Position numbers and translations under genes: made by a program
Shown here: positions 18,462 through 39,629 of the stretch, piece after piece
Layout: every line of letters begins with the position of its first letter
Position numbering within the stretch: the stretch's first letter is position 1
Assembly: GCA_964616615.1 (NCBI GenBank)
Contig: CAZTRJ010000003.1
Coordinates: forward strand, 1-46,866
Origin: an uncultured Dehalococcoidales bacterium
Lineage (GTDB): Bacteria; Chloroflexota; Dehalococcoidia; Dehalococcoidales; DAOVUZ01
Length of the DNA stretch: 46,866 nucleotides
Direction: 5' to 3'
Notes under the pieces: model-generated
What the model was told of the DNA's origin: nothing
Databases searched by the model: none
What the model saw: only the letters and a program-made list of their open reading frames with translations

Positions 18462-19415
18462 TTATTTTTCCTCCTCCTTTCCTAATAATTGCTCTACTAC
18501 CTTAGGGAACAGTAGGTTCAAAGGATGACCCTCAGTGGGTAAGGGTGCGCCCTCAGCATAGGCCCTGGCAGCCAGCATGCTACTAGCTGTTGCCACCGCG
18601 GGGTAGATTCGCTCCAGAGCAGTCATAGGACCAGGCAATATCCAGTCGCTTTCTATAGCAGTTATTGCCTGCATAGCAGCATCCACAGCCGGAAACTTGC
18701 TGGCACCCTCCTCACCCACAGACTTCTTCCACATATAGGTGCCGTTGGACGGAGCACAGCCCACCGGTAGCCCAAATTTCTCCTTGACCAGACGATTACC
18801 TATCAAGGAGAAGGCGGTGAGCGGTAAGCCCATCACCGCTGTGTCTACCAGGATGCTCTCGAAATTCCCTTTCTCCACCAGGGGTAGCAGCTTCTGGAGC
18901 GCCGAGACTCGTCCATTGGGTCCCATATCCTCCACATCAAACGCCTGAACGACCACATGCTTTACACCCAATTCCTTGAGTTCCGCTACCTGACCTTCAA
19001 TATCCTCATCCCAGGGAGTAATGCTATTATAAAGAAAGCGGTCCATCAGTCCTAGCTCAGCTATATAACGCGTTGCCGCAATTCTCGTCTTTGCCACCCA
19101 GATGTCGACACCGAAGGGTAAGTCGGTCACACTGGTGTAAAAATCAACCCACACCTTCATCTCATCCGTCTTGTTAGCTACCATAACCACCATACCGGGC
19201 ACGCCTGTCTCCTGAGACAGACGCTCCATCTCGTGGATACGTTCTGTAGCCTTCGCTCTGTCAAACTTACGCTCCTTTCTACTCTCAAGGAGCACATCCC
19301 CCTTCTGGAACATATTCCAAAATAAAACCGGGGGATTCTGTCCCGGTTGCCCACCCACTTTGATGCCACCAATGTTAAAAACCTTCTGTTCCAAGTTATA
19401 TTTAAGCATCACCAA
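18462..19415 (-). CDS. MtrH-family methyltransferase (methyl-corrinoid:tetrahydropterin methyltransferase-like)
   Basis: Alignable by eye to archaeal MtrH: FNIGGIKVGGQPGQNP, LYNSI, GLPVGCAPSN, GHPLN. Ends 1 nt before the next methyltransferase start. Confidence 0.75.
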   Translation of the reverse strand: MVMLKYNLEQKVFNIGGIKVGGQPGQNPPVLFWNMFQKGDVLLESRKERKFDRAKATERIHEMERLSQETGVPGMVVMVANKTDEMKVWVDFYTSVTDLPFGVDIWVAKTRIAATRYIAELGLMDRFLYNSITPWDEDIEGQVAELKELGVKHVVVQAFDVEDMGPNGRVSALQKLLPLVEKGNFESILVDTAVMGLPLTAFSLIGNRLVKEKFGLPVGCAPSNGTYMWKKSVGEEGASKFPAVDAAMQAITAIESDWILPGPMTALERIYPAVATASSMLAARAYAEGAPLPTEGHPLNLLFPKVVEQLLGKEEEK

Positions 19416-21793: not shown

Positions 21794-21815
21794 CCATATT
21801 CCTCTATTCTAACCC

Positions 21816-24316: not shown

Positions 24317-25360
24317 CTACTTTTCCTCAAATTTCACACCATATCTCGGGGCAACTTGTTGAATGGTACCAATTATCATACTATATAGAAGGTCCTCGGG
24401 TAACTTGCTGGCTATGGCGTCAACCACGAGCCTGCCACCACTCAGAGTATCCATATCACCAGTGAAATCGACTTCTTGGTCCAAGCTCACTAAACTGGCT
24501 TTAAGGAAGAAGCTCTCATCGCTGATAATCGCCTTTATATGGTTAATATCTCCTTCCATGCCGAGCACCTTTTCGGCTATCCCCACTAACAGGTAACGCA
24601 GGAAGTCCTTCAGCTCAGATTGGCTAAGAGTGCGCTCGACCTCAATGGCGTACCGCTCCCCCCGCTCCCCTATCTCAGTCACCGACCTAGCAAAAGTCTT
24701 AAACACGGTCATGGTAGCAACGGGAACAACTTCATGCCTTCCCCGAAGCACTATACCTGATAATTCATCTAAACCCGTCCCCGTTTTCGCCGACATCATA
24801 AGTAATCTTGCCCTGGGATTAATGTGCTGAATGATGGCTTGTATCGCTGGGAGCTGGTCCGGCGCCACCAGGTCCATCTTGTTTATCACCACTACCTCCG
24901 CATCCTCTATTTGACGGGACTCAATAAAGGGTAACTTCTCAGTATCTCCCTGATAGGATAAGAGTCGCAGCGCATCAACCAGTATTATTACCGGCGCCAA
25001 GTCCACTGTCTCACCAAACTTTCTCTGGAACGCCTCATACAGTTTTGAGGGCAGGAAATAAGCTACTGGCTCAATGAACATCACATCTGGGATAAACCTC
25101 TCGGTTATGGTATCAATGATGTAACCAAGATGGTCGAGGTAAAAGCAAATGCATCCTCCCGTGATTTCCCCAGCCTCGAACCCAAGACGCTTGGTCATCT
25201 CCCCATCGACATTGATTGCCCCTTTGTCATTAGATACTACCGCCACCCGCTTCCCCTCCCCACTCAGTTTTTTCCCCAGTTCCATAATGGCAGTAGTCTT
25301 GCCGACGGCGTAAAAGCCACCTATGCTGGCAACCCTTACTTTCTCCATTGTTATGCTCAT
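24317..25360 (-). CDS. G3E-family P-loop GTPase (CobW/MeaB/HypB-like) with C-terminal domain
   Basis: G1 GGFYAVGKTT, CobW-like GGCICF (degenerate CxCC), switch IEPVA, NKMDL (NKxD), and a ~130-aa C-terminal extension. Confidence 0.65.
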   Translation of the reverse strand: MSITMEKVRVASIGGFYAVGKTTAIMELGKKLSGEGKRVAVVSNDKGAINVDGEMTKRLGFEAGEITGGCICFYLDHLGYIIDTITERFIPDVMFIEPVAYFLPSKLYEAFQRKFGETVDLAPVIILVDALRLLSYQGDTEKLPFIESRQIEDAEVVVINKMDLVAPDQLPAIQAIIQHINPRARLLMMSAKTGTGLDELSGIVLRGRHEVVPVATMTVFKTFARSVTEIGERGERYAIEVERTLSQSELKDFLRYLLVGIAEKVLGMEGDINHIKAIISDESFFLKASLVSLDQEVDFTGDMDTLSGGRLVVDAIASKLPEDLLYSMIIGTIQQVAPRYGVKFEEK

Positions 25361-25417
25361 AATTAAAAACTATCTGGGGCTACTCTAACTTTTGTCAACA
25401 GGCAAATAACTTCCCGT

Positions 25418-26008
25418 CTACAATTTAACCCCAATGAGAATAGTCCCCTGACCCCGCACATCAACCCCGTTAAAATAGCCATTTTTCAAGAATAAATCAC
25501 AAGGTGTGGTGGGACTAGCATAAATAATGGAACGACATGAAAAATCGCTCCCCTCCAGGATACACCATTCGGCGAGGAGGCTCGGGGTCTCAAAACAGCA
25601 GACATCCTTGGCGATATCCTGAGGAAAAGATATCCTGTCCTTATAAATAACAAAATTATCCAGCATAAACCAGACATTTTCCTTTTTTTTCATCCTGGCA
25701 ATGGCTTCCTCATCCTCAATTTCTTCACCCACCACCTCCTCTCCTTTCTTTAAAATCAGGGAAGGAGAGCCCCACTCAAACTCTCTGTCAGTCAGGCCAA
25801 CATAGACCAAATCACAAGTTAGCACCTCCCTTATCCCGGTGTTGGCGACCCTACCCAGACCCATCAGGGAGTGCTTTTCGGCCTCATCCTCGATGCTCAA
25901 CACCTGCTGACTATCTTTTTCAGAAAAAGGGCAGATGTCTACGAGCCCCTTCACCTTTTTCAAGGCCGCTATCATCACCGCATCTGCCTTCGTCCGGTCT
26001 ATGGTCAT
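25418..26008 (-). CDS. hypothetical Cys-rich protein
   Basis: 196-aa ORF whose ATG overlaps the stop of the RamA-like gene (ATGA). Acidic linker and several Cys (DICPF, DVCCF, EWC, FSC, TPC). No family recognised. Confidence 0.4.
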   Translation of the reverse strand: MTIDRTKADAVMIAALKKVKGLVDICPFSEKDSQQVLSIEDEAEKHSLMGLGRVANTGIREVLTCDLVYVGLTDREFEWGSPSLILKKGEEVVGEEIEDEEAIARMKKKENVWFMLDNFVIYKDRISFPQDIAKDVCCFETPSLLAEWCILEGSDFSCRSIIYASPTTPCDLFLKNGYFNGVDVRGQGTILIGVKL

Positions 26009-27678
26009 TTCTCCTCTCCCGCTGAAGAGCTACTTTGCCGACCTTTAACTCCTGAAGTAATTAGTTTATTCAGGTTGAACACCTTTTCGCTACATATCCT
26101 TTCACATCTCATACAGGCTACCCCATTACACAGGGCTAGGTTAATAACGATGGCAGGCTTCTCCCCCTGTTCATCCAGGGAAAGAGCTCCCTCGGGGCAT
26201 TCCTCGACGCACTTCTGGCAGCTGATGCACCCCTCAAAAGCCATCTCTTTTAGTTCCCCGATGTCGGGAATAATCTTTAGCCCCATAACCCCCAAATCTG
26301 GTATGTCCCTCTCCACCGTCTTAATAACCTCTGGAAGCTCACCGACCTCGTGGAGGGGAGGGTAGCCATATCTTTCCAGAAATTGTTGATACATCTTCAA
26401 GGGCATACCCTGAGTCCATAAGGAAAGTTCAAGGACATAGACCTTCTCAAAAACCTCGGACTCGGCAAACATGCAGTGGTGTTGCCGCATCTCATTGGCT
26501 ATTTTTTGCATGTTCCACAGTTCATCCTCGCTTTTGACCATATCCCGGGACATAGCCAGGGAGGTGTTCCCTACCTGGAAGACCCTCTTTACAGTTGACG
26601 GTACCATGCCTATTTGCTGGGCCTTGAGGGCATCGACATAGGTTCCAGAGGCGCCGGACATATAAGCCGTTCCTATTTGGGTCATATCTATACCCGCCGC
26701 CTGACAAAGGGTGACATGCCCCGCCCTGACCGCGCCAATAGCCTTACCCGCCTCCTCGACATCGTGTTCGGTAAACTTGATACCGCTGGCAAGTTTGATT
26801 TTACTATCGGATGTTTTGATTTTGGGAAGTTTAATCAGACCGGTGTTTATTCCCTGGCTGAGTAAGGCAATCACTCCGGTACCAGTAATGCCTACCGCCT
26901 TTAAACTCCCTTTATCCAGGACTTTGCCCGAATCAGGGTCCACTAGGTCTCCTTTTTGGGCATACATATCCTGGTCAAGGACAAAACACTGAAGTCCGCC
27001 ATCCTGGGAATTGACATCAGAGATGGCTCCGGGGAGGGCTAATAGGCCATCCTCAATCTGTTGCCCTTCCAGGGCAGGCCCAGCAGCCGTAGAGCCAGTG
27101 TAAACGACTCCCCCTACTATGAGGGCCATTTCATTGTTAGTGCCGTAATCGGTGACAATGGCGATTTCTTCCCTTTCCAGCACACCTGCCTGAATCATCA
27201 TAGCCAGGGCGTCGGCTCCAATCTCGTGGCGAACCGCCGGTGGCACCAACACATCTGCTTCAGTCGGCAGGTCAAGACCTCTGACATCCCGTGCCTTAAC
27301 TATTTGGGCATCTCTTTTCGGGGGGACTACCCCCAGACTTTCCAGCTTGCTTTTCCCAGCATAGGCCAGGTCTCTTATCTCCATTTCCCTGAAAATAGAG
27401 AGCTGAATAGGATTGCCGCAGACAGCCAATCGCACCACATCATCTTTTTCGATTCTAAGATTGTCAATAACCCGATTGACAGCATTAACAGCCACATCAT
27501 GGGCGTTTGCTACCCCAACCTCCAGGGCAAAATGCAGGTGGTCCATTACATTAGCCCCTGGCATGGGGTGGCGGGTAGTAATAGCGGTAGAGATTATTTT
27601 GTTCCCATTGTCCAGGTCAATGGCTTGCCCCCTGAAGCCACTGGTTCCCAAATCAAAGGCAATACCTAGTTTCCCCAT
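26005..27678 (-). CDS. ramA: RamA-type reductive activase (ASKHA ATPase + C-terminal 2x[4Fe-4S] ferredoxin domain)
   Basis: N-terminal ASKHA motifs (GIAFDLGTSG, TDYGTNNE). C-terminal CISCQKCVEECP and CNGVACMRCERIC clusters. This is the domain order described for Methanosarcina RamA. Confidence 0.7.
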   Translation of the reverse strand: MGKLGIAFDLGTSGFRGQAIDLDNGNKIISTAITTRHPMPGANVMDHLHFALEVGVANAHDVAVNAVNRVIDNLRIEKDDVVRLAVCGNPIQLSIFREMEIRDLAYAGKSKLESLGVVPPKRDAQIVKARDVRGLDLPTEADVLVPPAVRHEIGADALAMMIQAGVLEREEIAIVTDYGTNNEMALIVGGVVYTGSTAAGPALEGQQIEDGLLALPGAISDVNSQDGGLQCFVLDQDMYAQKGDLVDPDSGKVLDKGSLKAVGITGTGVIALLSQGINTGLIKLPKIKTSDSKIKLASGIKFTEHDVEEAGKAIGAVRAGHVTLCQAAGIDMTQIGTAYMSGASGTYVDALKAQQIGMVPSTVKRVFQVGNTSLAMSRDMVKSEDELWNMQKIANEMRQHHCMFAESEVFEKVYVLELSLWTQGMPLKMYQQFLERYGYPPLHEVGELPEVIKTVERDIPDLGVMGLKIIPDIGELKEMAFEGCISCQKCVEECPEGALSLDEQGEKPAIVINLALCNGVACMRCERICSEKVFNLNKLITSGVKGRQSSSSAGEEK

Positions 27679-27752
27679 AACTCCCTCCTCGCAAGAATCA
27701 ATCTTTTACTTTGGTAGCATTAATTGTTCAAGACCTCCTGCGGTGCCACCTA

Positions 27753-28565
27753 TCAGGCTAATGCCTGAACTGCCATGGCAGCGACACCCAGTTGCAGGGG
27801 GTCATGGATAAGTTGAACCATATCTGACTCAGGTTCGTCAATGCCCAGAGGTACGCCCGGCGCTGCCAGGAACAGCCGACATTTCAGCTCCCCGACCCTG
27901 ATAATGTTAGAAGAGGTGGTGGCATCCAGCACCAGGTTGGTCTCACTTAAAATCTCACCCACACTACCCGCCCCTCTTATGCCTGCCCTCCCCGCCAGAA
28001 AATCAGACTGCCGCCTCTGGTCCTTATCATAAACGATGAGCCGGGCCCCGTGCGAGTGAAGCCAGCCCACTGCCGCCTGCCCTACCGGCCCTAATCCCAG
28101 GACAGCCACCGGGCGTCCAGCGACACCTCCGGCAGCAGCAGCCAGGGCGGCAGCATAAACCTCACCCGTAGCCAGTGTATTATCTACCAGTCGGCGGGAA
28201 CGCAAGTTCAATGCCAGAAAGGCGGCATCGTCGGCAAGTAGTATAATTTCTGAACCACCGACCACAGCCTCGCCCAATCCAGCCACATCCTGCCCTCTGG
28301 TAACTTTACAAGGCAGCCCCAGAAAACAGCCTATGTCAGCTACCTGTTCCGAAAAACCAGGAATGATGCCCTGACCGGTAGTGATAGGAATAACCGCCAC
28401 CCAGGACAGAGCTGCCACCCCGGTTCTGTATTGTTCCAGTGTCATATCTGTTGTCTCAAGAGCCAGTTCCAGCAGTCCCATACCAGTTGCAGCCTGCAGC
28501 CTCTGCTCGTATGCTTTCAAATCGATAGGTCCCTGCTTCAGGTCATCTGTGGTCAACCGCGTCAT
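27753..28565 (-). CDS. pylD: pyrrolysine biosynthesis dehydrogenase PylD
   Basis: By-eye alignment with Methanosarcina PylD: LTTDDL, IPITTGQGIIPGFSEQV, GSEIILLADDAAFLALNL, VLGLGPVG Rossmann loop. Overlaps the pylC end by 23 nt. Confidence 0.85.
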   Translation of the reverse strand: MTRLTTDDLKQGPIDLKAYEQRLQAATGMGLLELALETTDMTLEQYRTGVAALSWVAVIPITTGQGIIPGFSEQVADIGCFLGLPCKVTRGQDVAGLGEAVVGGSEIILLADDAAFLALNLRSRRLVDNTLATGEVYAAALAAAAGGVAGRPVAVLGLGPVGQAAVGWLHSHGARLIVYDKDQRRQSDFLAGRAGIRGAGSVGEILSETNLVLDATTSSNIIRVGELKCRLFLAAPGVPLGIDEPESDMVQLIHDPLQLGVAAMAVQALA

Positions 28566-29781
28566 GATTCCCTCCGAGTTGCGGCACTTGGTAAGTAGGG
28601 TCGATAAAATCTTTCAGGTTCAATGCCGAGGCTATGCGCTCCAGGCACCTTTGCCGCTTTTCAGCAACTGATGCCCAGTCAACTCCAGTAAAAATGAGGG
28701 TGCTCTTGAAAGCCGACTTCCCTTCCTGATAGTTAGTCAGGGCTACGGTGGCTCCGAAAAATTCACCATTGGGCCACACCCGGAGTCCGCTCCAGGGTAG
28801 CAAACGCGTCTCGCCAATAGCCTCCAGACAGGAGTTACCTACTGACCAGTGTTCCAGCCAGGCACACCCGGGCCCAGCTACCGCCGGGCGGAGGGGCTGA
28901 CCACATCCATGAGCCTTTACCCATTCCTCCAGCAGGTTGATACCGGAGGCATGATAAACAGCCATGGGCGTCTGACTGGGAAAGCGAGCATCAATCTCCA
29001 GAACAACAACCTCCCCCCTTCGGGGGTCAGCCATGACCTCAACATCCATAAGCCCATTAAGCTTCAGGTGGCGGGCAATGTCAAGGCAGATGGTTTCAAA
29101 CCTCTGATTGAGACTGTGGGGCAATCTCGACGGAGCATAAACCCGCTTGCAATCCAGTTTAGCATCAAATTCCAATTCGGTGACCAGATAGCCGACGCCT
29201 GCCCCTTGCCGGGCAATTACCTCCAAAGAAAGGGAAGGACCGCTATGATAGGCTTCCACCACCATCTCTCCATAACGGGTAGTGAGTTCCGGCAAAACAG
29301 CGTCCAAGGCGGTCCGACTCAACACTACCTGAAGACCATGACTCCCACTGGACGTGGACGGTTTGACTATAACCGGGAAGCGGCAATGAGGCCACTTTTC
29401 CGGGACAGGGATTCCGTGGTCGGCAAAAAAGCGGTTACTGCGTATTTTGGATGATGATACGGCATAGGCTGCAGTATCATGCAAAAATGTCACCCCGGCT
29501 TCCTCACAGGTCTCCGCCAAAAAATCCAGGGTTCCCTTCTCTTCAGTTGCCGGTAGAATCGCATCCATATCCGGCAGCAGACGGCGAAACCGGTGGGGCT
29601 CTTCCTGGATGTCAAAAACGCAGGCTTGATGAGCCAGTGCCAGAGCTGGCGCCTCCGGGTCACGGTCGATAACCGTAACCTGATATCCAGCTTCCCGTGC
29701 CAGGTAGGCGGCTTCAATCCCCTGTAGACGCCCCCCGACAAGTCCAAGGCGAAAGGAATAAGCATGTGGTTTAGGGTTCAT
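28543..29781 (-). CDS. pylC: 3-methylornithine--L-lysine ligase PylC (ATP-grasp)
   Basis: Pre-ATP-grasp N-terminus LGLVGGRLQGIEAAYLAREAGYQVTVID. ATP-grasp body (VIVKPSTSSGSHG, LEIDARFPSQTP). The start is set at ATG 29781 (MNPKPH) rather than the upstream alternative start at 29796. Confidence 0.8.
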   Translation of the reverse strand: MNPKPHAYSFRLGLVGGRLQGIEAAYLAREAGYQVTVIDRDPEAPALALAHQACVFDIQEEPHRFRRLLPDMDAILPATEEKGTLDFLAETCEEAGVTFLHDTAAYAVSSSKIRSNRFFADHGIPVPEKWPHCRFPVIVKPSTSSGSHGLQVVLSRTALDAVLPELTTRYGEMVVEAYHSGPSLSLEVIARQGAGVGYLVTELEFDAKLDCKRVYAPSRLPHSLNQRFETICLDIARHLKLNGLMDVEVMADPRRGEVVVLEIDARFPSQTPMAVYHASGINLLEEWVKAHGCGQPLRPAVAGPGCAWLEHWSVGNSCLEAIGETRLLPWSGLRVWPNGEFFGATVALTNYQEGKSAFKSTLIFTGVDWASVAEKRQRCLERIASALNLKDFIDPTYQVPQLGGNHDAVDHR

Positions 29782-29801
29782 AGCCACCAGTCTCACATAA
29801 T

Positions 29802-29838
29802 GGGGTGAGCTTCGCTAAGGAGTCACTAAGCTCACCCC
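29802..29838 (-). promoter_or_regulatory. leader hairpin upstream of pylC
   Basis: Perfect 11-bp stem GGGGTGAGCTT / AAGCTCACCCC with a 15-nt loop. It lies between the promoter and the pylC start, with no trailing U-run. Confidence 0.5.
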
Positions 29839-29849
29839 AAGCAGTGAAA

Positions 29850-29878
29850 ATTATAAGCCCAGCCTAAATTCTTGTCAA
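29850..29878 (-). promoter_or_regulatory. consensus sigma70 promoter for pylC-pylD
   Basis: On the - strand: TTGACA (29878-29873), a 17-nt spacer, then TATAAT (29855-29850). Both hexamers are perfect. Confidence 0.65.
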
Positions 29879-30003
29879 CAGCTTGTACTCTTCTTGTTCC
29901 AGAAACTTGAGTGGTGTCAGGTAGTTAAGGGCTTGGTGAGAACAGGAGGACAGCAGTAACTAGCTTTAATAAGGCAAGAGGTCATGGTTTTGGCACAGCC
30001 TGT

Positions 30004-30834
30004 TTAGATGTTGAGCCGTGCCCCATCCAGATAGATTAGGCTTCTACCGACACGGTGTATATTCCCATTGCCGGTAACTAACATAGCCACCCGCTCCAGC
30101 CCTACACCCAGTCCGGCCCAGGATTCGCTGATGTTCCAGTTGCCATCCAGAGGATGGGGGCCGGTAGCGCCCGAAGCCACCTCCACCCCATCACAGACCA
30201 CATCCAGGGTAAAGCCATAAACCTGAGAGGACTCTTTCACCAAATCATAGGAAAGACCAAATGTGCCCATGACCAGGTCTGCTATCTCAACCAACCGTTC
30301 TTGTGGCTCACCTTGACAACCCAATTCCACCAGGTTCAGCATAGTGAACTCTTCCATGTGGTGGGAGCCTTTGGACTCCTTGCGCCAGCAGGAGCCTATC
30401 TCAAAAAGGCAGATTGGGCGCGGCCACAGACGCTGCAAGTGTCCCAACAGAAAATAGAGGTTGGGCGCCAACATAGGGCGAAGGCAACGCTCTTCATCAA
30501 TCCAGAAAATCTGCTTCCACAGGGGGTCATCCTCAAAAATGTTCATTTTTTTGAGTAATCCCCGGGCTAAAAAGGCGGGGGTAGTCACCTCCACGAACCC
30601 GGCCTGCACCAAGGTTTCGGCTATCTGCGCCGCTATTCTAACCGGGGCAGGACGACGCAGAGTAGTGCGGAGTCTGGTCAAGATTTCCAGGTTTCTTTCC
30701 GACAACTCTTTGGCCAGATGATTGAAGCAGGCGTTACGCTCCGATTCGGAGGCAAAGCTCAGTGCCAGTGCCTCAGGTTCCGCATCCAGTTCAACGAGCC
30801 GCTGTTTTTGAGTACTTGAAAAGGTAACCTTCAT
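30004..30834 (-). CDS. pylS: pyrrolysyl-tRNA synthetase, catalytic subunit (PylSc)
   Basis: By-eye alignment with Desulfitobacterium PylSc and the Methanosarcina PylRS C-domain: CLRPMLAPNLY, ICLFEIGSCWRKES, EEFTMLN, VYGFTLDV, ASGATGPHPLD, GLGVGLERV, SLIYLDGARLNI. The start is set at ATG 30834 behind AAGGAAGG. Confidence 0.9.
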   Translation of the reverse strand: MKVTFSSTQKQRLVELDAEPEALALSFASESERNACFNHLAKELSERNLEILTRLRTTLRRPAPVRIAAQIAETLVQAGFVEVTTPAFLARGLLKKMNIFEDDPLWKQIFWIDEERCLRPMLAPNLYFLLGHLQRLWPRPICLFEIGSCWRKESKGSHHMEEFTMLNLVELGCQGEPQERLVEIADLVMGTFGLSYDLVKESSQVYGFTLDVVCDGVEVASGATGPHPLDGNWNISESWAGLGVGLERVAMLVTGNGNIHRVGRSLIYLDGARLNI

Positions 30835-31174
30835 GTCCGCCTTCCTTGACAAAGGAGGTCCGAGAGTATTTTTCCAGCTTCCACGCCGGCACCCGACAAC
30901 TCTGACAGGGCTTTTCGTACCATTTATTCCTGAGCCACCGTGCCAGGCGACTATTACTGGAACACTTGACACAGACCCTCTGGTTGCAGTGGGTGATTAT
31001 GGTCATCACATTACCCCGGCACTTTACGGAACGAACACCATGGAGGATTCCCTTATGTGACGGCAAAAGCTTAATCCGATTTATGAGGTAATATAAGTCT
31101 TCGCCCTTCCTGAAGACCTTCTTCTTTTTCCGCTTTCCGCCAACCTCAGCGGTAACGGGACTTTGTGGTTCCAT
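30791..31174 (-). CDS. pylSn: pyrrolysyl-tRNA synthetase N-terminal tRNA-binding subunit (PylSn)
   Basis: Matches the PylRS N-domain by eye: LINRIKLLPSHKGILHGV...THCNQRVCVKCSSNSRLARWLRNKWYEKPCQSCRV against M. mazei LISATGLWMSRTGTIHKI...[34 protein letters not shown]. The H/C/C/C Zn ligands are conserved. Its 3' end overlaps pylSc by 44 nt in another frame. Confidence 0.8.
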   Translation of the reverse strand: MEPQSPVTAEVGGKRKKKKVFRKGEDLYYLINRIKLLPSHKGILHGVRSVKCRGNVMTIITHCNQRVCVKCSSNSRLARWLRNKWYEKPCQSCRVPAWKLEKYSRTSFVKEGGHEGYLFKYSKTAAR

Positions 31175-31206
31175 AACACTTCCCCCGGGCTATAGACGGC
31201 AAACAC

Positions 31207-31278
31207 TGGCGGAGAGTTCGGGAGTTTAACCCGACTACATGGATTTAGAGTCCACGCGGTCCTGCCGACCAACCCTCC
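31207..31278 (-). tRNA. pylT: tRNA-Pyl (anticodon CUA), CCA encoded
   Basis: The - strand reads GGAGGGT-T-GGTC-GGCAG-GACC-G-CGTGGA-CTCTAAA-TCCATG-TAG-TCGGG-TTAAACT-CCCGA-ACTCTCC-G-CCA. Features: 7-bp acceptor stem, one linker nt, 5-nt D loop, 6-bp anticodon stem, CUA anticodon, 3-nt variable loop, T loop lacking the TPsiC consensus, and G discriminator. Close to the M. barkeri tRNA-Pyl core GGACTCTAAATCC. Confidence 0.92.
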
Positions 31279-31400
31279 ATAAAGGCTGAGAACACTTGCT
31301 TTCTGGGACACTTAGCCCATCGTGTCCCCCATCTCTAATATCCAACCGAAGAGCTATTACATTGGCTCCAGTAGTATGCAAGTCACCAGCCAGCTTGTTG

Positions 31401-32090
31401 TTATTTCGGCTTTTGAATGGCTCTCAGCGCTCGGCGCAACATATCCAGCCAGGGTTCTACCGTTTCGGCTCTAAACCGTTCGTAGTCCCTTGCCAACGAT
31501 GCATCTGCCACCGTCAGATAGACCCTAGCCACTTCCGGGCTCTCAAATTCCCCGCTGAGCTTATCCCCTAAAACTTTTTTTAAAGAAGGGTAAAGCTCCT
31601 GGTACGGTTCTAAAAATCCCATAATTTCGAAAACACTGCCTTCCATTTCCTCCAGACACGGAAATTCCTCCAGACACGGAAAGGGTTTACTCAAAATCCT
31701 CTCTAAACAGCGACAACGCTCAGACAATGAATCCAGCCCACCCTGCAAGTAAGCACTGACTGCCTCCGAATCAACACTGATATAATCCATAACAGCCAGT
31801 TGGCAGTCGTCAATGGCATAAATGCTGCAACCTTCGTCGCTAACTTTTAATTCCAGCTCATTTTTCACGAAACTGTAGAGAGCCTCTCCCGTGAGCCTGG
31901 AAGACATCTTCCCAATTATCCGTACCACCTCCCCCATGGATTCCAGTGGAAGTTCAGCAGGAGCCTTCAAGCAGTATAGTTCGCCGAAAAAATGGCACCG
32001 CACGCTTAAAGGCCGGGCTAAGCTCCCAAACGTACCAGGGTCCCAAACCTTTAACAGCAGCATGTCACCCGGCGAGCTTTCGCTGGTCAT
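31401..32090 (-). CDS. hypothetical protein, third gene of the AAA+/VWA module
   Basis: 229-aa ORF whose start overlaps the VWA gene stop by 4 nt. No recognisable motif. Contains the internal PCLEEF/PCLEEM duplication. Confidence 0.45.
   Translation of the reverse strand: MTSESSPGDMLLLKVWDPGTFGSLARPLSVRCHFFGELYCLKAPAELPLESMGEVVRIIGKMSSRLTGEALYSFVKNELELKVSDEGCSIYAIDDCQLAVMDYISVDSEAVSAYLQGGLDSLSERCRCLERILSKPFPCLEEFPCLEEMEGSVFEIMGFLEPYQELYPSLKKVLGDKLSGEFESPEVARVYLTVADASLARDYERFRAETVEPWLDMLRRALRAIQKPK
31647..31682. repeat. 18-nt perfect tandem duplication inside the hypothetical CDS
   Basis: TTCCTCCAGACACGGAAA x2 (31647-31664 and 31665-31682), encoding FPCLEE twice. Confidence 0.9.
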
Positions 32091-33325
32091 TGTTCATACC
32101 CCTGTAACCGGATGACCCTTCCAAATGGCGGCTCACGGTAAGAATTCATAACCCAGATGACATCAAAGGGTTGATTCGAGTCCGGATATTTCCCATCTCC
32201 GTCCGTCAGGTAAACCAGCACTTCAGGCGGGTCATCATCTATCTTGCTAAAAACAGGACGGAAGTCGGTACCACCACTACCACTGAGACACTTCAGGAAA
32301 GACTCAAAATCTGAATCATGCACCGCCATCATATCAGCATGAACGGCGGCATCGCAAGCCAAAAGCCTGGCCCGGAACGAACTGAAGGACTGGAGGATGT
32401 TTCTGATTTCCGCCAAAAACTCGTCAAGCTGCTCATCACTCACGCTTCCCGAGGTGTCCACCGCCACCGCTATTTTTAACAGCTCAGACTTAGAAGATGG
32501 ATAGTATATCCCATATTGAAGCAATCGCCTATCGGGTTTCATCCAATCATAATCATCACTAGAGCGCTGCTTAATATACTGATGCAAAAGCTGACGCCAA
32601 TTCAAACGAGGGTAAGCAAGTTCCCCAACTACCCGGGCAATGCCCAAGGGGAACATACCTTGATGCTTCGCCACCGCCGCCGCTTCAATCGCCCTCTGTT
32701 TCCACAACTCCTCATCTTTACTAGCTTCAGCAGACTTATCCAATGCCTCTTTACTAGCTTCAGCAGACTTATCCAATGCCTCTTTACTAGCTTCAGTGGG
32801 CTTATCCAATGTCTCCCTTGGCCCACTATCCTGTCGGTTGATGTCATGCCCGCCTTCTTCAGTGTTGTCCCACACACCGTGGTCATCAATAGTATCTCCT
32901 TCACCACCAGGCAGGCCTTCTTCATTCAATAGCTCATTGTAAATTTGCTCCGCGCTTTTGTTTTCAAACTCTTTTTCATACAATATCCCTTCAGGCAAAC
33001 GGAAGTGGTCTTTCAAAATAGCGTTAATCACATAGTCCGCCGCCATGTTCCAGAGCCTTTTTTCTCGAGAACCACGCCTCCAGATGTGCCCCAGCGCCAG
33101 ATGCATCACCTCGTGGGCAAAGACCCCCTCAATCTCCTCATCTTCCAGTCTATCTATCTTTTCCGGGAAATAGTACAGACAAATACCGTCGGTCCCGGTT
33201 GGATATTTGCTCTCATGCTCCCTCAGCTCGAGATAGTTGGCGAGATAGCCAAAAAAGGGGTTCTTCAGCAGTAGCTGAACCCTGGCTCTAATTACCCTCT
33301 TCCTGACGCTCGTAGAATCACTCAT
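32087..33325 (-). CDS. HExxH metallopeptidase-like + VWA-like domain protein (DUF2201-type partner of MoxR ATPases)
   Basis: N-terminal FAHEVMHLALGH (HExxH). Central low-complexity repeat linker. C-terminal VWA/MIDAS-like AVDTSGSVS. Overlaps the AAA+ gene stop by 4 nt. Confidence 0.65.
   Translation of the reverse strand: MSDSTSVRKRVIRARVQLLLKNPFFGYLANYLELREHESKYPTGTDGICLYYFPEKIDRLEDEEIEGVFAHEVMHLALGHIWRRGSREKRLWNMAADYVINAILKDHFRLPEGILYEKEFENKSAEQIYNELLNEEGLPGGEGDTIDDHGVWDNTEEGGHDINRQDSGPRETLDKPTEASKEALDKSAEASKEALDKSAEASKDEELWKQRAIEAAAVAKHQGMFPLGIARVVGELAYPRLNWRQLLHQYIKQRSSDDYDWMKPDRRLLQYGIYYPSSKSELLKIAVAVDTSGSVSDEQLDEFLAEIRNILQSFSSFRARLLACDAAVHADMMAVHDSDFESFLKCLSGSGGTDFRPVFSKIDDDPPEVLVYLTDGDGKYPDSNQPFDVIWVMNSYREPPFGRVIRLQGYEQ
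32715..32813. repeat. 33-nt tandem repeat x3 within the VWA protein linker
   Basis: Units at 32715-32747, 32748-32780 and 32781-32813 (TCTTTACTAGCTTCAGCAGACTTATCCAATGCC). The first two are identical and the third has a few changes. Encodes (EASKEALDKSA)n. Confidence 0.9.
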
Positions 33326-34326
33326 AGAATCAAATCTCGGTGCTTTTCGGCAAAATAAACAAATTCCTGCGTTTCTCTAACCGGTAACTCCGCTCTAATA
33401 GCATCCCTTACCAGCAACACGGAGAATTCCTCAGGTAAAAGGCAGGCGTATTCTATAACTCTGGCAGTTTTCCCCATGTCCTCGCGGGCATAACAAACCA
33501 GGGCCGACACCAGAGAGTAGAGCAGGTCCGGACTCTGTGGAACCAGGTCCTCTCCGTTGAGAATCATCTTTGCATCCGGAAGCCGCTCTGTTGCCCGCAG
33601 GTAAGCCAGGAATTCAGTCGCCGCACCCACGCCGATAGCACCGGCTACATCCGTTTTGCTCTCAAGCCCTATAGCCAAAATCTCGGAGACCCTCTCCCAA
33701 CTTCGAGGTGTGGGAAAAGCGTGTTCCATCTTCGCCGGGTCGAAGCGAAACAGCAGGTCAGGTTTGAAGCTTAAAAAACCTATTACCCTGGAGTCAATCT
33801 GATTGGCATACGCCCATTTTTTCCAGTCATCAAGATTGGTTTCAACTTCCCAATGGATGAACCGATTGGCTAACGGGGCTGGCATGGGCACGGTATAGGC
33901 TCTGTCGGTGGACTTATTTCCCGCCGCCACCACCATCCACCCATCCGGCAACACATACTCCCCGACTCTGCGGTCCAAAATAAGCTGATACGCAGCCGCC
34001 TGTACTGAATGAGGCGCCAGGTTCAGCTCGTCCAGGAACAAAATGCCCTTTCCGCTTTGCGGCAGGAAACAGGGTGGCGACCAACTGACCGTTCCCCCAT
34101 CAAACCTGGGCAGCCCCCTAAGGTCAACGGGGTCAAGCAAGGTCAACCGCAAATCCTCAAAATCTATTCCCTCTTCCTCACAGATTTGCTTGACAATGTC
34201 AGACTTCCCTATCCCAGTGGAGCCCCATAAAAAGACGGGCGGTGAGTTTATTCTTGCCCCCAGGCAAAAACTCACCATATGCCTGAGCACCTCCTTAACC
34301 TCGTTAATGCTTTTGGTAGCGAGCAT
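33322..34326 (-). CDS. MoxR/AAA_5-type AAA+ ATPase
   Basis: Walker A GSTGIGKS, Walker B ILFLDELN, sensor region VVAAGN, LANRF motif. The start lies 2 nt after the pylB stop. Confidence 0.8.
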   Translation of the reverse strand: MLATKSINEVKEVLRHMVSFCLGARINSPPVFLWGSTGIGKSDIVKQICEEEGIDFEDLRLTLLDPVDLRGLPRFDGGTVSWSPPCFLPQSGKGILFLDELNLAPHSVQAAAYQLILDRRVGEYVLPDGWMVVAAGNKSTDRAYTVPMPAPLANRFIHWEVETNLDDWKKWAYANQIDSRVIGFLSFKPDLLFRFDPAKMEHAFPTPRSWERVSEILAIGLESKTDVAGAIGVGAATEFLAYLRATERLPDAKMILNGEDLVPQSPDLLYSLVSALVCYAREDMGKTARVIEYACLLPEEFSVLLVRDAIRAELPVRETQEFVYFAEKHRDLIL

Positions 34327-34328
34327 CT

Positions 34329-35399
34329 TTATGAACTCTCCTTTTTATTCCGCCGCTTTTCCTTCTTAAGCCACTTTTGGTACCCTGATACCGGGGCTAC
34401 CCTCAAACCCGCCTGCTCAATCACCGGGGTCACCACCGACACCGTCCGCAGCCCGTCTTCAATACCTAGCTGAGACCTGGATACCCCCGCCAGTCCATAC
34501 CGCGGTGGTATCATCGAGGTCACCACATTGGCTCCGGCATCTAATCGAGCCTTAAGCCCCTCAACCCCATCCACATCCAGCGAGGCTGGTATCAGTCGGT
34601 CGGGAAAGCAAATACGAAATGTGGCAATAGTTCGTAATTCATTCAGTGAATCCGGCGCTTGCCAATCAGCCATCGGGGTGCCACGCTGAGGTCTGAAGGT
34701 CATCGCCCTCACCTGGCTGGCACAAAGGCTTTCTATGGCTTTTACCGCCAATGCCCCGTCAGCGGGGCTGTCTCCTACCCCCAGCAGCAGCCCCTCTTCA
34801 ATAAGCAATCCAGCCCGGCGGGCGTGCACCTTAGCTACCAGACGCCTATTAAAATCCTGCTGTATACGCAAGCGGGCAAAAAGACTTTCATTGAAAGTTT
34901 CCTGATAACAGGCATACCAATCCACCCCCAGGCGGGCAATTTCAACCAAAATCCCCGGTGTTAAAACGCCAGGGGAAACCATAACTGATAGCGGGACAGC
35001 CTCGCGCACCTCATCCACCAATTCCAGAAGCCTCCCCCCACCCCCCTCCAGGTAGTAAGGGTCCTCCCCCATAGTCAAATCCAGCAGGTGAACCCCATCG
35101 GCGGCTAATGCCCGGGCGACATCAAGTATGACCTTTATGCTTTTGCGATAGCGAGGCGAGGCGCTGTTGCCACACCGATAAAGACAAAAATTGCAGTGGT
35201 TTCGGCAGTAGGTGGATAAATAGACAAAACCGTAAAGAAAAACCTCCTCGCCGAAGACACGCTCCCTCAGTGTCCGGGCAGTGGCAAAGAGGCTATCCAG
35301 GGGTTTGCCCGGCGGTGTGGCTAAAAGCGAAGCCACCTCTACTTCATCCAGGGGCTGCCCGCACAAGGCCTTTTCCAAAATGGGTTCAATAGTCCTCAT
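34329..35399 (-). CDS. pylB: methylornithine synthase PylB (radical SAM)
   Basis: By-eye alignment with Methanosarcina PylB: VFLYGFVYLSTYCRNHCNFCLY (CxxxCxxC), DLTMGEDPYY, YQETFNESLF, RLIPASLDVDG, AGANVVTS. Confidence 0.88.
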   Translation of the reverse strand: MRTIEPILEKALCGQPLDEVEVASLLATPPGKPLDSLFATARTLRERVFGEEVFLYGFVYLSTYCRNHCNFCLYRCGNSASPRYRKSIKVILDVARALAADGVHLLDLTMGEDPYYLEGGGGRLLELVDEVREAVPLSVMVSPGVLTPGILVEIARLGVDWYACYQETFNESLFARLRIQQDFNRRLVAKVHARRAGLLIEEGLLLGVGDSPADGALAVKAIESLCASQVRAMTFRPQRGTPMADWQAPDSLNELRTIATFRICFPDRLIPASLDVDGVEGLKARLDAGANVVTSMIPPRYGLAGVSRSQLGIEDGLRTVSVVTPVIEQAGLRVAPVSGYQKWLKKEKRRNKKESS

Positions 35400-35508
35400 A
35401 GTTTGAGCACCTGCTCCAAACCAGCCCGAGTTTATGAATTACGACGCCGCTGAAATAATATTATTAACTCAATTAAGAGTTGAGTAATTCTCACTACTCC
35501 AAATATCC

Positions 35509-35537
35509 ATTATATCACTTAGCTGTATGGTTGAACA
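35509..35537 (-). promoter_or_regulatory. possible extended -10 promoter for pylB
   Basis: On the - strand: TGATATAAT (TGn + TATAAT) with a weak -35 (TGTTCA). An inverted repeat ACTCAA-N-TTGAGT (35464-35487) lies in the leader. Confidence 0.3.
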
Positions 35538-35607
35538 AAAATCTCACACATACGAGCCTGGCACATAAATAAACCAGGCAGTTAACCTAGTCATACTCCT
35601 AAACACA

Positions 35608-35641
35608 TTCGCCCACCGCCCCAGAAGGGACGGTGGGCGAA
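35608..35641 (-). terminator. hairpin terminator downstream of mtmB
   Basis: TTCGCCCACCG / CGGTGGGCGAA, an 11-bp GC-rich stem 23 nt after the mtmB stop. The trailing U tract is only moderate (TGTGTTT). Confidence 0.5.
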
Positions 35642-35663
35642 CCTCAAATCAAGAGCAAGCTTT

Positions 35664-37046
35664 TTATAGCTTAAGCTTGAACCCGCACCCCTCAAAGGTC
35701 TTTAAGGCTTTATCCATTACCTTGATATACTCATCCGTAGGCGACAGAGAAGCTACATCGTAGCACTCCTGGAAGGTCTTGCCCTTTGGTGCCGTCTTGA
35801 AGTTCTTCTCATAGAGAGACACCAGCTTGTCTAGAGCGACATTGACCTTTTCCAGAGGCTCCCCGGCGACGGCTCGGCTGGCATAAGCCATAAAGCGTGA
35901 TTCCATGGCAGTGGTGTAGTCCCGAGCAACACCTTTTGCCGAGGCATTACCACTAATAATCTCACGCCCGGCGGCAGTATCCGTAACCGCCTGAGCCGCT
36001 GCCTCCAGCAAGCACATCTCAGTGCATGGACCAGCTGAAGTATAGTACTGGTTACCCAAAAGCAGATGGGTATTGCGATCCAGAGCCCGACCACAGTAGC
36101 CGGCAACCATCAACACCTCCCTGGCTGTTGTGTTGCCCCAGCGCACATGAATCGGTCCGTCCAGATGCCAGTCAGCTCCCACTAATAGGAAAGCTCCCAA
36201 ACTGGTGGCTACGTCAATGATGGTGGTCTCCTCGACCCCTCCTGCCCAGCCACCGAAGATGGGCATCTGCTCACTCATAACTATGCAACCGCCTAACTTG
36301 TAGTGGGCGGTGAAGGTAAGGGCATTAATGTCAATCTTGAGCTCATTAAGCTGACTTACCTCGTGGCTATCACTTGGCCGCATGCCGCCCTCAAAATCAG
36401 CAGCTAAAACGCCAGCCGCCGTCAGCGAAGTTTCATTCCCCTACATCGCCATCCCGGGACGACCAGCCCGCTGCTGTGCCATACGGATTCCGTATGCTTC
36501 CTGTTTGACAGCAGCTATCTCATACGGGGAGCCAGGCTTGGGTTCGTGCCCGTTCCAGGTAGCCACAACACCGTCAACGATGGAATCTACCAAGGGCTCC
36601 CGGGCATACGCCTCCATCATCGGGATAAAGATGTTCTCCGATACCGGAGCCCCGGTCGGACCACCCTGATTAATGGGTGGGCGGGGGTCATCAAATGTCC
36701 GTGACTTCATCTGCTCCGAATCCTTACCCTCACCTAGCGTGAGGCAGTCAGGAGCCGCCGCTGCCCCCATCATAACCTCGTCCTCGGTGTACTTGCAGAC
36801 ACGACAGGTATCCATGTTGAAATAGCCCTGTGTTACGAGCATTTCAACACCGGCACGGAACAAACGGTCACAGAGGTCATTGTCAGTCGGGACTATCTTG
36901 CTCCTGTCAAATTGAAGCTTATACTTCTCCTTCAATGCATGTGCCGTTTTGAAGGTGAGTACTTCATCCCACTCTTTCTCTGTCACCCTGGGGCCGGTGC
37001 GCATTCGGTCGTAGGTCTCAAACACGCCGACCTTTTCCCTAAACAT
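35664..37046 (-). CDS. mtmB: monomethylamine:corrinoid methyltransferase MtmB with in-frame UAG (pyrrolysine) at codon 202
   Basis: ORFs 36441..37046 and 35664..36383 are in the same frame. They are joined through TAG (36443-36441) plus 19 codons. The read-through gives GRPGMAM-O-GNETSLTAAGVLAADFEGGMRPSDSHEVSQLNELKIDINAL, which matches M. barkeri MtmB GRPGMGV-O-GPETSLSAQGNISADCTGGMTCTDSHEVSQLNELKIDLDAI. 460 aa in total. AGGAGG RBS. Confidence 0.92.
36441..36443 (-). other. recoded amber codon (Pyl) inside mtmB
   Basis: + strand CTA equals TAG on the - strand, at the position homologous to the pyrrolysine codon of archaeal mtmB. Confidence 0.9.
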
Positions 37047-37129
37047 TTATTTTCCTCCTTTTAATCTTTCGGGCTGGCCACGCCGCAAAAGCCGTTTGCT
37101 TTCCCTCCTCTCAGTTTATTATCTGGTTA

Positions 37130-37768
37130 TTATCCCAGTAGTTTCCTGGCTACCGTCACCGCCTCGGCCCCATTCTCGGCCCATCCGTCAGCGCCAATCT
37201 CTTTTATCCACTCCGGAGTCGTTGGTGCCCCACCAAACATGGTCTTGAATTTGTCGCGAACACCTCGTTCCTTAAGGGCGGCAACAATCTCCCGCTGGGA
37301 AAACATGGTCGTGCTCATAAGAGCTGAGCCAGTAATCATGTCAACCTTCTCCTCCTCAGCCACATCACACACGTGCTCTATGGGAACATCACGACCCAGG
37401 TCCACCGTCTCAAATCCGCTGGCAGTCAACAGGATTTTCACGATATTTTTGCCAATATCATGGATATCCCCTTCCACGGTATGACAGATGATCTTGCCTT
37501 TGGCTTTGTAGCCTCCCTTAATAAGGGGCTTCAGGATTTCCACCGCTTCGGTAAAGGCTTCGGCTGAGATAATAATCTGGGGAACAAAGACCTCCGCCTT
37601 ATCAAACAAATCGCTGATAACATTCATACCTGCCCCCAACCCCTCGTCAATGCACTTCATAAGGTCCAGATTCTCAGCCGCAGCCTCTTTGGCGGCTGCC
37701 TTAGCCCCATCCACATCCTGCTCAACAATAGCCTTCTTTAACTTTTCCAGAATTTCCTTCTCGGCCAT
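37130..37768 (-). CDS. mtmC: monomethylamine corrinoid protein (B12-binding)
   Basis: DxHxxG motif GDIHDIGKN, SALMSTTM, GGAP. Lies immediately upstream of mtmB, as in the archaeal mtmCB arrangement. Confidence 0.85.
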   Translation of the reverse strand: MAEKEILEKLKKAIVEQDVDGAKAAAKEAAAENLDLMKCIDEGLGAGMNVISDLFDKAEVFVPQIIISAEAFTEAVEILKPLIKGGYKAKGKIICHTVEGDIHDIGKNIVKILLTASGFETVDLGRDVPIEHVCDVAEEEKVDMITGSALMSTTMFSQREIVAALKERGVRDKFKTMFGGAPTTPEWIKEIGADGWAENGAEAVTVARKLLG

Positions 37769-37805
37769 CTCTATCTCGTCTCCTTTCGTTACTTTGGGTA
37801 CTATT

Positions 37806-37835
37806 TAGAAACTAAAGTTACTACTAGAAACTAAA
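37806..37835. promoter_or_regulatory. 11-bp direct repeat pair upstream of mtmC (candidate regulator site)
   Basis: TAGAAACTAAA at 37806-37816 and 37825-37835 (19-bp period), 38-67 nt upstream of the mtmC ATG. Confidence 0.4.
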
Positions 37836-37886
37836 CTGACAGAGCACCTCCTTTCCTCTTTAAGCCCCCTGCTCAGGGGCCCTAAC

Positions 37887-37920
37887 GTCCTTTTTGCTTC
37901 ATTCAGCCAGCAAAAAGGAC
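37887..37920 (-). terminator. hairpin terminator after the Amt gene
   Basis: GTCCTTTTTGC / GCAAAAAGGAC, an 11-bp stem directly after the amt stop. A second GC hairpin GCCCC-N7-GGGGC lies at 37864-37880. Confidence 0.5.
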
Positions 37921-37934
37921 TAAAAATTTATTTA

Positions 37935-39116
37935 TTAATACGGTTCCTGCCTGCCGGGCTCCAAATCGAAGATCTCGGAATCGTCCACATCCAGCGCTGG
38001 TCTCGGACTGCGGCACAGAACTCCAGTGATAACACCGACTACTATCATAATCACTATAGCGCCGAGCAAAGCCCAGACCTGCACCACACCAGCAAACAAG
38101 ACGGCACATATCAGAGCACCAAAAATACCACCGACCCCGTGCAGGTTCTGCACCCCCATCATATCTTTCACACCAAAGATTCTTTCGCTAGCGGGCTGCC
38201 AGTACTTAAAGCATAAGACTGATATGGCACCTGCTGCCACACCAATGATAAGCCCTGCCCATGGTCCGACCAGGTCACATGTTGAACCAATAGCAACCAT
38301 GCCGCACAGCATAGCATAGGTGTAAATCAGGGGGTCAACCTTTTTATCTATCATCCAATTCACTACATAGGCAGCAACTGCCGCACCAAAACCAGACATG
38401 TAGGTGACTATGGCTACGTCAACCACTTGACCCGGTGCCAGCAGGACTGTCACGAAGGATGGCCACAGTATAAACAGCAACATCGACGCCAGCCAGACGA
38501 AGCTCACACTGTGGGTAGTAATATCCATCGGCGCCGTTAGAGCTGACTTACTCCGAATCCCATGAATCATCCCAAAGCCAAAGGCCCATGCCGCCGCATG
38601 AACCACAATGGACCCGCCAGCGTCAAGAACGCCTACCAGGAACTCAAACATAAACCACTCCATGAGTAGAAAAGCGAAGGGGAAGGTTATCCCCATGATA
38701 ACATAGTGACCATGTTTTACCTGCCCCAAACACACCCCGATGGCTATCACCAGCGTTATCGACATAACGATGCCCATTGCCAGGAAGTCAACAGTCCACC
38801 CTGTTGGCATTACCGAAAACTGGTTGGCAAAGACAACAGTCTTGAGAAAAGCATACACCGGTAAACTAATACACAGCGTCAGCATAGTTGCGAGGCAGAC
38901 TATCCACTCCATCCTCTTAACAAACAACATCAAAAAGGCAACTAGCATGTACATAAAGAAGATATTCTGCGTCCTTTGCCACATTAAGTTGTCTATTATC
39001 TCTACATCTAGAATTTCCTGAGCAAAAACAGTAACTGGCTGGACTATCAGCGCTACCACTGTTGCCGCTACTAACAATCCAAGCCATATCACCTTCCGTG
39101 ATTTCAACACTTTCAT
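37935..39116 (-). CDS. Amt/MEP-family ammonium (methylammonium) channel
   Basis: Signal-like N-terminus and about 11 hydrophobic segments. LDAGGSIVVH corresponds to the DFAGGTVVH signature, and the second His context is NLHGVGGIFGAL. Confidence 0.7.
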   Translation of the reverse strand: MKVLKSRKVIWLGLLVAATVVALIVQPVTVFAQEILDVEIIDNLMWQRTQNIFFMYMLVAFLMLFVKRMEWIVCLATMLTLCISLPVYAFLKTVVFANQFSVMPTGWTVDFLAMGIVMSITLVIAIGVCLGQVKHGHYVIMGITFPFAFLLMEWFMFEFLVGVLDAGGSIVVHAAAWAFGFGMIHGIRSKSALTAPMDITTHSVSFVWLASMLLFILWPSFVTVLLAPGQVVDVAIVTYMSGFGAAVAAYVVNWMIDKKVDPLIYTYAMLCGMVAIGSTCDLVGPWAGLIIGVAAGAISVLCFKYWQPASERIFGVKDMMGVQNLHGVGGIFGALICAVLFAGVVQVWALLGAIVIMIVVGVITGVLCRSPRPALDVDDSEIFDLEPGRQEPY

Positions 39117-39271
39117 ATCACCTCCGTCTCTTGTCTATAGATTTTGACTCCGGCGATCCAGCTAACTATATAAATTTCATAATCACCTCCTCCCTCATAA
39201 ATTTCGAGGAGTTTCACCGGGTTATCGCGAGGTTTTCAAATTGGCAAATAGATATAAAACAACTTTCCATC

Positions 39272-39300
39272 ATCCTAGAATAAATCAGAAACTTTGTCAA
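39272..39300 (-). promoter_or_regulatory. promoter-like element upstream of amt (P1)
   Basis: On the - strand: TTGACA, a 17-nt spacer, then TAGGAT. Embedded in the motif TACTTGACAAA. Confidence 0.35.
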
Positions 39301-39400
39301 GTAACTCCTAGGTTATGTTCAATAGATTTCACATCACTCTCTCTTGCCCATAGACTCCAGCGAGTTATCGACTTTTTAAGTAAATATGAGGTAAAAAAGT

Positions 39401-39429
39401 ATTTTAAAACAAATCAACAATTTTGTCAA
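39401..39429 (-). promoter_or_regulatory. promoter-like element upstream of amt (P2)
   Basis: On the - strand: TTGACA, a 17-nt spacer, then TAAAAT. Carries the same TACTTGACAAA motif as P1. Confidence 0.4.
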
Positions 39430-39510
39430 GTAGGAGAGGGTTTTTCAGATAACCCCAGCCTCTTTAGTCCACAGGCATTTTCTGCCCCACAGCTAAGCCA
39501 AAGGCAATTG

Positions 39511-39553: not shown

Positions 39554-39629
39554 GGGGCTGTAGCTTAGCTGGGAGAGCGCCTCCCTTGCACGGAGGAGGT
39601 CGGGGGTTCGAGTCCCCCCAGCTCCACCA
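39554..39629 (+). tRNA. tRNA-Ala (anticodon UGC), CCA encoded
   Basis: GGGGCTGTAGCTTAGCTGGGAGAGCGCCTCCCTTGCACGGAGGAGGTCGGGGGTTCGAGTCCCCCCAGCTCCACCA. It has the G3:U70 alanine identity pair, anticodon loop CTTGCAC and T loop TTCGAGT. Confidence 0.95.

Follow-up and report, generated by a model that had tools for sequence, protein, structure and literature searches.

Gene finding breaks a methyltransferase gene in two on the minus strand of the window (the whole 46,866-nucleotide stretch of DNA analyzed here), which raises the question of whether this DNA carries a dead gene, a pair of genes, or one gene whose in-frame UAG is read as pyrrolysine (Pyl), the 22nd amino acid. The archetype of the last arrangement is M. 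barkeri MtmB1, the Pyl-containing monomethylamine methyltransferase that first revealed pyrrolysine. The initial annotation had proposed a single mtmB gene with a UAG at the conserved Pyl position, a proposal that is supported by an alignment placing X202 on X202 of the archaeal enzyme, by 75 of 75 relatives, and by the adjoining set of pyl genes. From the sequence, we put at about 0.9 the probability that mtmB is one functional gene encoding a Pyl-containing monomethylamine:corrinoid methyltransferase in an uncultured bacterium, probably a member of the Dehalococcoidales.

The mtmB reading frame and its conserved UAG

The ORF listing and direct translation define an mtmB frame of 460 codons (37046..35664, minus strand) that ends in a TAA at 35664-35666. 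Its sole interruption is a TAG at 36441-36443, which is codon 202 of the 460-residue product, as had been claimed; neither a frameshift nor a second stop occurs across the frame. The N-terminal ORF (37046..36441, minus strand, 201 aa) ends at this TAG, and the C-terminal ORF (36383..35664, minus strand, 239 aa) continues in the identical frame, with only the TAG and 19 sense codons (GNETSLTAAGVLAADFEGG) between them, just as the initial annotation had described. The read-through peptide quoted there, GRPGMAM-O-GNETSLTAAG...SDSHEVSQLNELKID, was found in exactly that form, and the predicted peptide spanning codon 202 is AGRPGMAM-O-GNETSLTAAGVLAADFEGGMR. The ATG at 37046 is the earliest start past the upstream stop and has a strong Shine-Dalgarno sequence (AGGAGG) 8 nt upstream. 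The internal ATG at 36383 is preceded at 5 nt by GAGG, a weak Shine-Dalgarno-like sequence that is absent in the closest relative, the locus L001 described below. A six-frame scan with TAG treated as sense found no gene in the window besides mtmB with an internal TAG and long coding sequence on both sides.

The read-through protein matches the Pfam MtmB family (PF05369) with 668.5 bits over residues 7-455, corresponding to profile positions 2-449 of 450, and M. barkeri MtmB1 (PDB 1L2Q/1NTH/1TV2) with an E value of 3e-157. The collinearity with archaeal MtmB that had been asserted around the UAG extends over 455 residues at ∼53% identity with one single-residue gap, and the two proteins are of similar length (460 versus 458 residues). 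In this alignment to the characterized enzyme, for which structures are available (PDB 1L2Q, 1NTH, and 1TV2-4), query X202, placed at the TAG, pairs with X202 of the 1L2Q/1NTH chain, which is pyrrolysine; the TAG thus falls on the Pyl column at an equal residue number. The flanking motif is likewise kept (GRPGM..O-G.ETS), reading AGRPGMAM-X-GNETS in the window and AGRPGMGV-X-GPETS in 1L2Q.

We then compared the gene with its relatives, scanning at one genome per species, which gave 354 relatives and 75 loci that were kept. All 75, bacterial and archaeal, contain exactly one in-frame stop, which is always TAG and always lies in the same motif and column, and 29 of 29 representative sequences aligned with MAFFT share the TAG column. 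In the same alignment, 27 of 28 comparisons show a higher identity for the part that follows the TAG than for the part that precedes it: 60% versus 43% against Methanosarcina, for example, and 81% versus 75% against a Desulfobacteraceae metagenome-assembled genome (MAG). The one exception is the closest relative (92% after versus 94% before), whose MtmB is 93% identical and against which dN/dS is 0.42 for the upstream part and 0.31 for the downstream part. The 19 codons from the TAG to the internal ATG are kept as protein (GNETSLTAAGVLAADFEGG versus GPETSLSAQGNISADCTGG in M. barkeri). The TAG is not an assembly error, since it recurs in L001 and in short contigs of three separate sequencing runs (SRR24302412, SRR24302413, and SRR24302423; Logan).

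The initial annotation also held that standard annotation would report two halves. This was true of the Logan assemblies with identical sequence, where a 201-aa call is followed by a second call beginning 58 nt on, but Pyl-aware pipelines need not mis-annotate the gene. The annotation here must show a single Pyl-containing gene instead of two fragments.

Downstream of the mtmB stop lie a GC-rich 9-bp stem (35641-35612, minus strand) and a second, terminator-like hairpin with a T-rich tail (35592-35572, minus strand). Both are contained (35572-35641) in the 264-nt spacer between mtmB and pylB, suggesting that mtmCB and the pyl genes may form separate transcription units.

Pyrrolysine and methylamine genes around mtmB

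The genes pylB, tRNA-Pyl(CUA), pylSn/pylSc, pylC, and pylD are all present on the same strand as mtmB, within 9 kb, in the order pylB-(three genes)-pylT-pylSn-pylSc-pylC-pylD-ramA, with pylB detached from the others and adjoining mtmB. The three biosynthesis genes are those of methylornithine synthase, a radical SAM enzyme (pylB, 34329..35399, minus strand; TIGR03910 equivalog, 421.4 bits, cut-off 348.2), 3-methylornithine--L-lysine ligase (pylC, 28543..29796, minus strand, start codon uncertain; TIGR03909, 323.7 bits, cut-off 248.3), and 3-methylornithyl-N6-L-lysine dehydrogenase (pylD, 27753..28565, minus strand; TIGR03911, 197 bits, cut-off 150.05, and Pfam PylD_N). All three are intact, with no internal stops, and score above their NCBIfam equivalog cut-offs.

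The tRNA gene pylT (31207..31278, minus strand, anticodon CUA) was found by ARAGORN and is missed by the general Rfam tRNA model. Its cloverleaf has the unusual architecture typical of tRNA-Pyl: a single base separates the acceptor stem from the D stem, the D and variable loops are 5 and 3 nt long, respectively, and the anticodon stem comprises 6 bp. The pyrrolysyl-tRNA synthetase is split. Its small tRNA-binding subunit is encoded by pylSn (30791..31174, minus strand; TIGR03912, 99.3 bits, cut-off 51.15), the product of which matches the N-domain of M. mazei PylRS (5UD5), and its catalytic subunit by pylSc (30004..30834, minus strand; TIGR02367, 277.8 bits, cut-off 178.15), whose best solved relative is D. 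hafniense (Desulfitobacterium hafniense) PylSc (3DSQ/2ZNI, E 2e-77). The pylSc frame is open from 30972, 46 codons above its likely start at ATG 30834. The two synthetase genes overlap by 44 nt (30791-30834, minus strand), with pylSc in the +1 frame, an arrangement shared by L001. A perfect sigma-70 consensus, TTGACA-17-TATAAT, is found between pylSc and pylC (29850-29878, minus strand).

The three genes inserted between pylB and pylT (31401..34326, minus strand) encode an AAA_5 (MoxR-like) ATPase, a putative metallopeptidase (DUF2201) that also carries a VWA-like domain, and a protein of 229 aa that matched no family, including in Pfam at relaxed thresholds. Among the 75 related loci, only L001 has these three genes at the pylB-pylT position.

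The partners expected of a methylamine pathway flank this set. Directly upstream of mtmB is an mtmC-like gene for a cognate B12-binding corrinoid protein (37130..37768, minus strand; TIGR02370, 229.7 bits, cut-off 215.3) with the His-ligand motif DIHDIG (DxHxxG) at residue 101. Upstream of mtmC is a gene for a divergent Amt-family membrane protein (37935..39116, minus strand), which matches PF00909 with 93 bits and TIGR00836 with 74.8 bits, the latter far under the cut-off. Archaeal loci, among them those of Methanolobus and Methanomassiliicoccus, encode homologues of this protein (41-48% identity) not more than 10 kb from mtmB, and we regard the window protein as a candidate methylammonium/ammonium transporter. 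Directly following pylD is ramA (26005..27678, minus strand), whose product, the reductive activase of the methylamine methyltransferase corrinoid protein (TIGR04270, 788.8 bits, cut-off 500), consists of a RACo ASKHA domain and a C-terminal 2x[4Fe-4S] domain. Farther along is a gene for an MtrH-family methyltransferase (18462..19415, minus strand; PF02007, 164 bits; NF002142, 286.9 bits, just under the cut-off of 287) that also matches, more weakly, the model of the MtgA THF methyltransferase; its product is a candidate for the transfer of methyl groups from methyl-corrinoid to tetrahydrofolate.

Decoding of the UAG and alternative explanations

The 41 genes defined by ORFs in the window, which are a small sample from a single stretch of DNA, end in TAG (11 genes, 27%), TAA (16), or TGA (14). 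TAG is therefore neither rare nor absent as a terminator in this window (11/41), as it would be under genome-wide reassignment of UAG, and read-through of the other TAG stops would lengthen the proteins concerned by 1-54 codons. Since efficient suppression would extend other proteins, read-through in mtmB may be partial or conditional, and since UAG is still a stop, the mtmB UAG must be decoded in competition with termination.

We used single-sequence folding against dinucleotide shuffles to look for a PYLIS-like fold 3' of the mtmB UAG. None was found in the 113 nt from the UAG (z = +0.19), and the corresponding 113-nt span of L001 also lacks excess stability over its shuffles (z = +0.52). 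In contrast, the same span in methanogen controls gave z values of -2.71 (Methanosarcina), -1.92 (Methanolobus), and -2.13 (Methanomassiliicoccales), and these control spans show the long-range helix described for methanogen mtmB (PMC12626013). The enhancer known in methanogens thus appears to be absent from the window mtmB (z = +0.19 versus -1.9 to -2.7), in agreement with the published opinion that Pyl insertion does not strictly require a cis element (PMC12626013). With UAG serving as an ordinary stop in this region and no stabilizing RNA structure, decoding is probably set by competition and pyl expression rather than by a cis element, and we infer that read-through is governed by the level of charged tRNA-Pyl, via expression of the adjacent pyl genes.

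These components suggest a scheme in which PylB, PylC, and PylD would build pyrrolysine from two lysines, and the split PylSn+PylSc would charge tRNA-Pyl(CUA) with it. The charged tRNA would compete with release factor 1 at UAG codon 202 and decode it, yielding the 460-residue MtmB with a predicted pyrrolysine at that codon. MtmB would then move the methyl group of its presumed substrate, monomethylamine, onto the Co(I) corrinoid of MtmC, which RamA would re-reduce after oxidation. A second methyltransferase, for which the candidates are the MtrH-family protein and one of four MtaA/CmuA-family proteins, would transfer the methyl group to an acceptor, most likely tetrahydrofolate, while the Amt-like protein probably carries methylammonium or ammonium across the membrane.

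A different role for a full-length protein is the alternative that fares best, although we consider it quite improbable: the gene might encode an MtmB homologue whose substrate is not monomethylamine, or its read-through product might be made conditionally or at a low level and have a regulatory role. The function of bacterial MtmB homologues has been described as unclear (PMC3941956), identity to the characterized enzyme is only 53%, the PYLIS-like fold is missing, and TAG is not depleted, all of which would agree with such a role. It is opposed by the full-length collinear similarity with its one single-residue gap, by the retained motifs flanking Pyl, and by the methylamine-pathway neighbors MtmC, RamA, and the Amt-like protein, the last of which is also found beside archaeal mtmB.

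It is less probable still that translation stops at the UAG and restarts at ATG 36383, the two halves then assembling into an enzyme without pyrrolysine. An ATG does lie 19 codons past the TAG with GAGG 5 nt upstream, but the GAGG is lost in L001 and the methionine of this ATG is a conserved internal residue of the family. The 19 intervening codons must be translated, because they are conserved as protein between the window (GNETSLTAAGVLAADFEGG) and M. barkeri (GPETSLSAQGNISADCTGG). Furthermore, pyrrolysine is an active-site residue of the MtmB enzyme family (PMC12626013, PMC3941956), and the neighboring Pyl cassette would be purposeless. We rejected a stop and restart because the codons that separate the TAG from the internal ATG are conserved and L001 lacks the GAGG.

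Finally, the notion that a nonsense mutation cut a former mtmB into two dead halves, for which the two fragments from ordinary ORF finding and from public-assembly gene calls and the frequent use of TAG as a stop in the window could be cited, has a negligible probability and was excluded by the conservation of the TAG in the one column where every MtmB carries it (75/75), the better conservation of the downstream half, and a dN/dS of 0.31-0.42 across both halves, besides which no further stop or frameshift occurs in 460 codons and a complete Pyl cassette adjoins the gene.

Beyond the reading of mtmB as a single Pyl-containing gene, a more far-reaching one would combine a truly ambiguous amber codon, a rebuilt Pyl cassette, and the three inserted genes as a lineage-specific Pyl/methylamine accessory module. 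Taken jointly, these propositions are unlikely to hold, but the module could, for example, act in maturation or quality control. If the combination were true, methyl groups from methylamines would enter a pathway other than methanogenesis in a group of bacteria that is abundant in the subsurface.

Relatives, known systems and neighboring genes

The closest relative, L001, is a contig labeled as an uncultured Dehalococcoidales MAG (CAZQRE010000001.1) that is syntenic with positions 39491..27401 of the window at a nucleotide identity of 88-91%. The gene order from the Amt-like gene to pylD, the TAG, and the three inserted genes are all as in the window, and the two tRNA-Pyl copies differ by 1 nt. 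L001, unlike the window, has a 1.9 kb insertion between pylSc and pylC (13539-15484), which contains an NYN-domain gene and a DUF2283-like ORF and lies at the same spot as the sigma-70 consensus of the window (29850-29878). Synteny ends at a tRNA-Ala(UGC) gene (39554-39629, plus strand, in the window; 3915-3990 in L001), past which L001 has ORFs unrelated to those of the window, where a 1425-aa protein is a fusion of a BcrAD/BadFG double ATPase with DUF2229.

A tree of MtmB sequences places those of the window and L001 as the sister group of sequences from Desulfobacterota (identity 71-78%), apart from five other Dehalococcoidales MAGs (identity 59-64%). The corrinoid protein, RamA, and one MtaA-like protein are likewise 67-70% identical to Desulfobacterales loci. 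The grouping of MtmB with Desulfobacterota suggests lateral transfer, in which the whole methylotrophy block may have moved between phyla, or, less likely, a binning problem. There is no sign of a compositional island, as GC content is even (0.46-0.54) across the window. The split PylRS and the 93%-identical, syntenic Dehalococcoidales MAG point to a bacterial and not an archaeal host, archaeal MtmB serving here as the comparator; the placement in the Dehalococcoidales follows the label of the L001 MAG.

The locus resembles the M. barkeri system in that it encodes a protein of the same family, with the corrinoid-protein gene directly upstream and RamA and the pyl genes nearby. It differs from that system in its bacterial host, in the division of PylRS into PylSn and PylSc, and in its methyl acceptor, which is probably tetrahydrofolate rather than coenzyme M. 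The split synthetase is the bacterial arrangement (PMC3941956, PMC5424206), and a 2024 review put the number of split-type PylRS sequences at 204 (PMC11363022). Pyl-containing MtmB proteins are on record from the bacteria Acetohalobium arabaticum and Desulfotomaculum acetoxidans; the pyl clusters of bacteria are arranged as pylTScBCDSn or pylSnScBCD, some of them interrupted by other genes (PMC3941956). The window shares with the Acetohalobium and Desulfotomaculum clusters an amber mtmB, split pylSn/pylSc, and an interrupted pyl cluster linked to methyltransferase genes (PMC3941956); it differs in that pylB is detached beside mtmB and in its lineage, which by MAG label is Chloroflexota/Dehalococcoidales rather than Firmicutes.

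Chloroflexi-type pylSc/pylSn and a Dehalococcoid lineage with PylRS have been reported in metagenomes (Mukai et al. 2017, PMC5424206), and the window agrees with those genes in its phylum-level host and in the type of its split PylRS (PMC5424206). That report dealt with synthetase genes and their co-occurrence with SepRS (PMC5424206). The window contains no SepRS; it adds a contiguous UAG-mtmB, all pyl genes, ramA, and B12 salvage genes. Pyl-MtmB in bacteria and Chloroflexi-type pyl genes are thus already published, and the window is a further example, with the local peculiarities that pylB is detached next to mtmB and that three unrelated genes lie between pylB and pylT. An mtmB beside pyl genes is what a specialist would expect, and the locus leaves the understanding of pyrrolysine decoding unchanged. 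Its value lies in presenting a compact and complete locus for methylamine use (transporter, mtmCB, pylB, pylT, pylSnSc, pylCD, and ramA) in an uncultured, probably Dehalococcoidales bacterium. It is further evidence of competition for methylamines by non-methanogenic bacteria in anoxic habitats, and it supplies one more split-type PylRS/tRNA-Pyl pair for genetic-code-expansion work.

The window also contains two cobalamin riboswitches (Rfam RF00174; 1146-1291 and 7245-7438, both plus strand; 48.9 and 114.3 bits, respectively). One precedes a btuF/FecCD/ABC uptake operon and the other a cobT, cobS, cobC-like, and cobU block for nucleotide-loop assembly, so that B12 salvage is encoded beside the corrinoid-dependent methyltransferases.

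A 196-aa ORF (25418-26008) and a gene for a cobW-like GTPase (24317-25360, minus strand) share one frame across a gap (25360-25418). We considered them as a second recoded unit and rejected this as an intergenic coincidence, since three TAGs occur within 17 codons. The 196-aa protein had no family match in Pfam at relaxed thresholds, and the cobW-like protein has a sub-threshold match to a 'CobW-related selenoprotein' model.

A second corrinoid methyltransferase cluster occupies 16125-24233 and also 13697-14701, both on the minus strand. It encodes the four MtaA/CmuA-family proteins, a corrinoid protein (DVHDIG), a DUF6951 protein, and the MtrH-family methyltransferase, together with an activase of the AcsV/RACo type with a 2Fe-2S domain, and presumably resembles bacterial O-demethylase or Mto-type systems.
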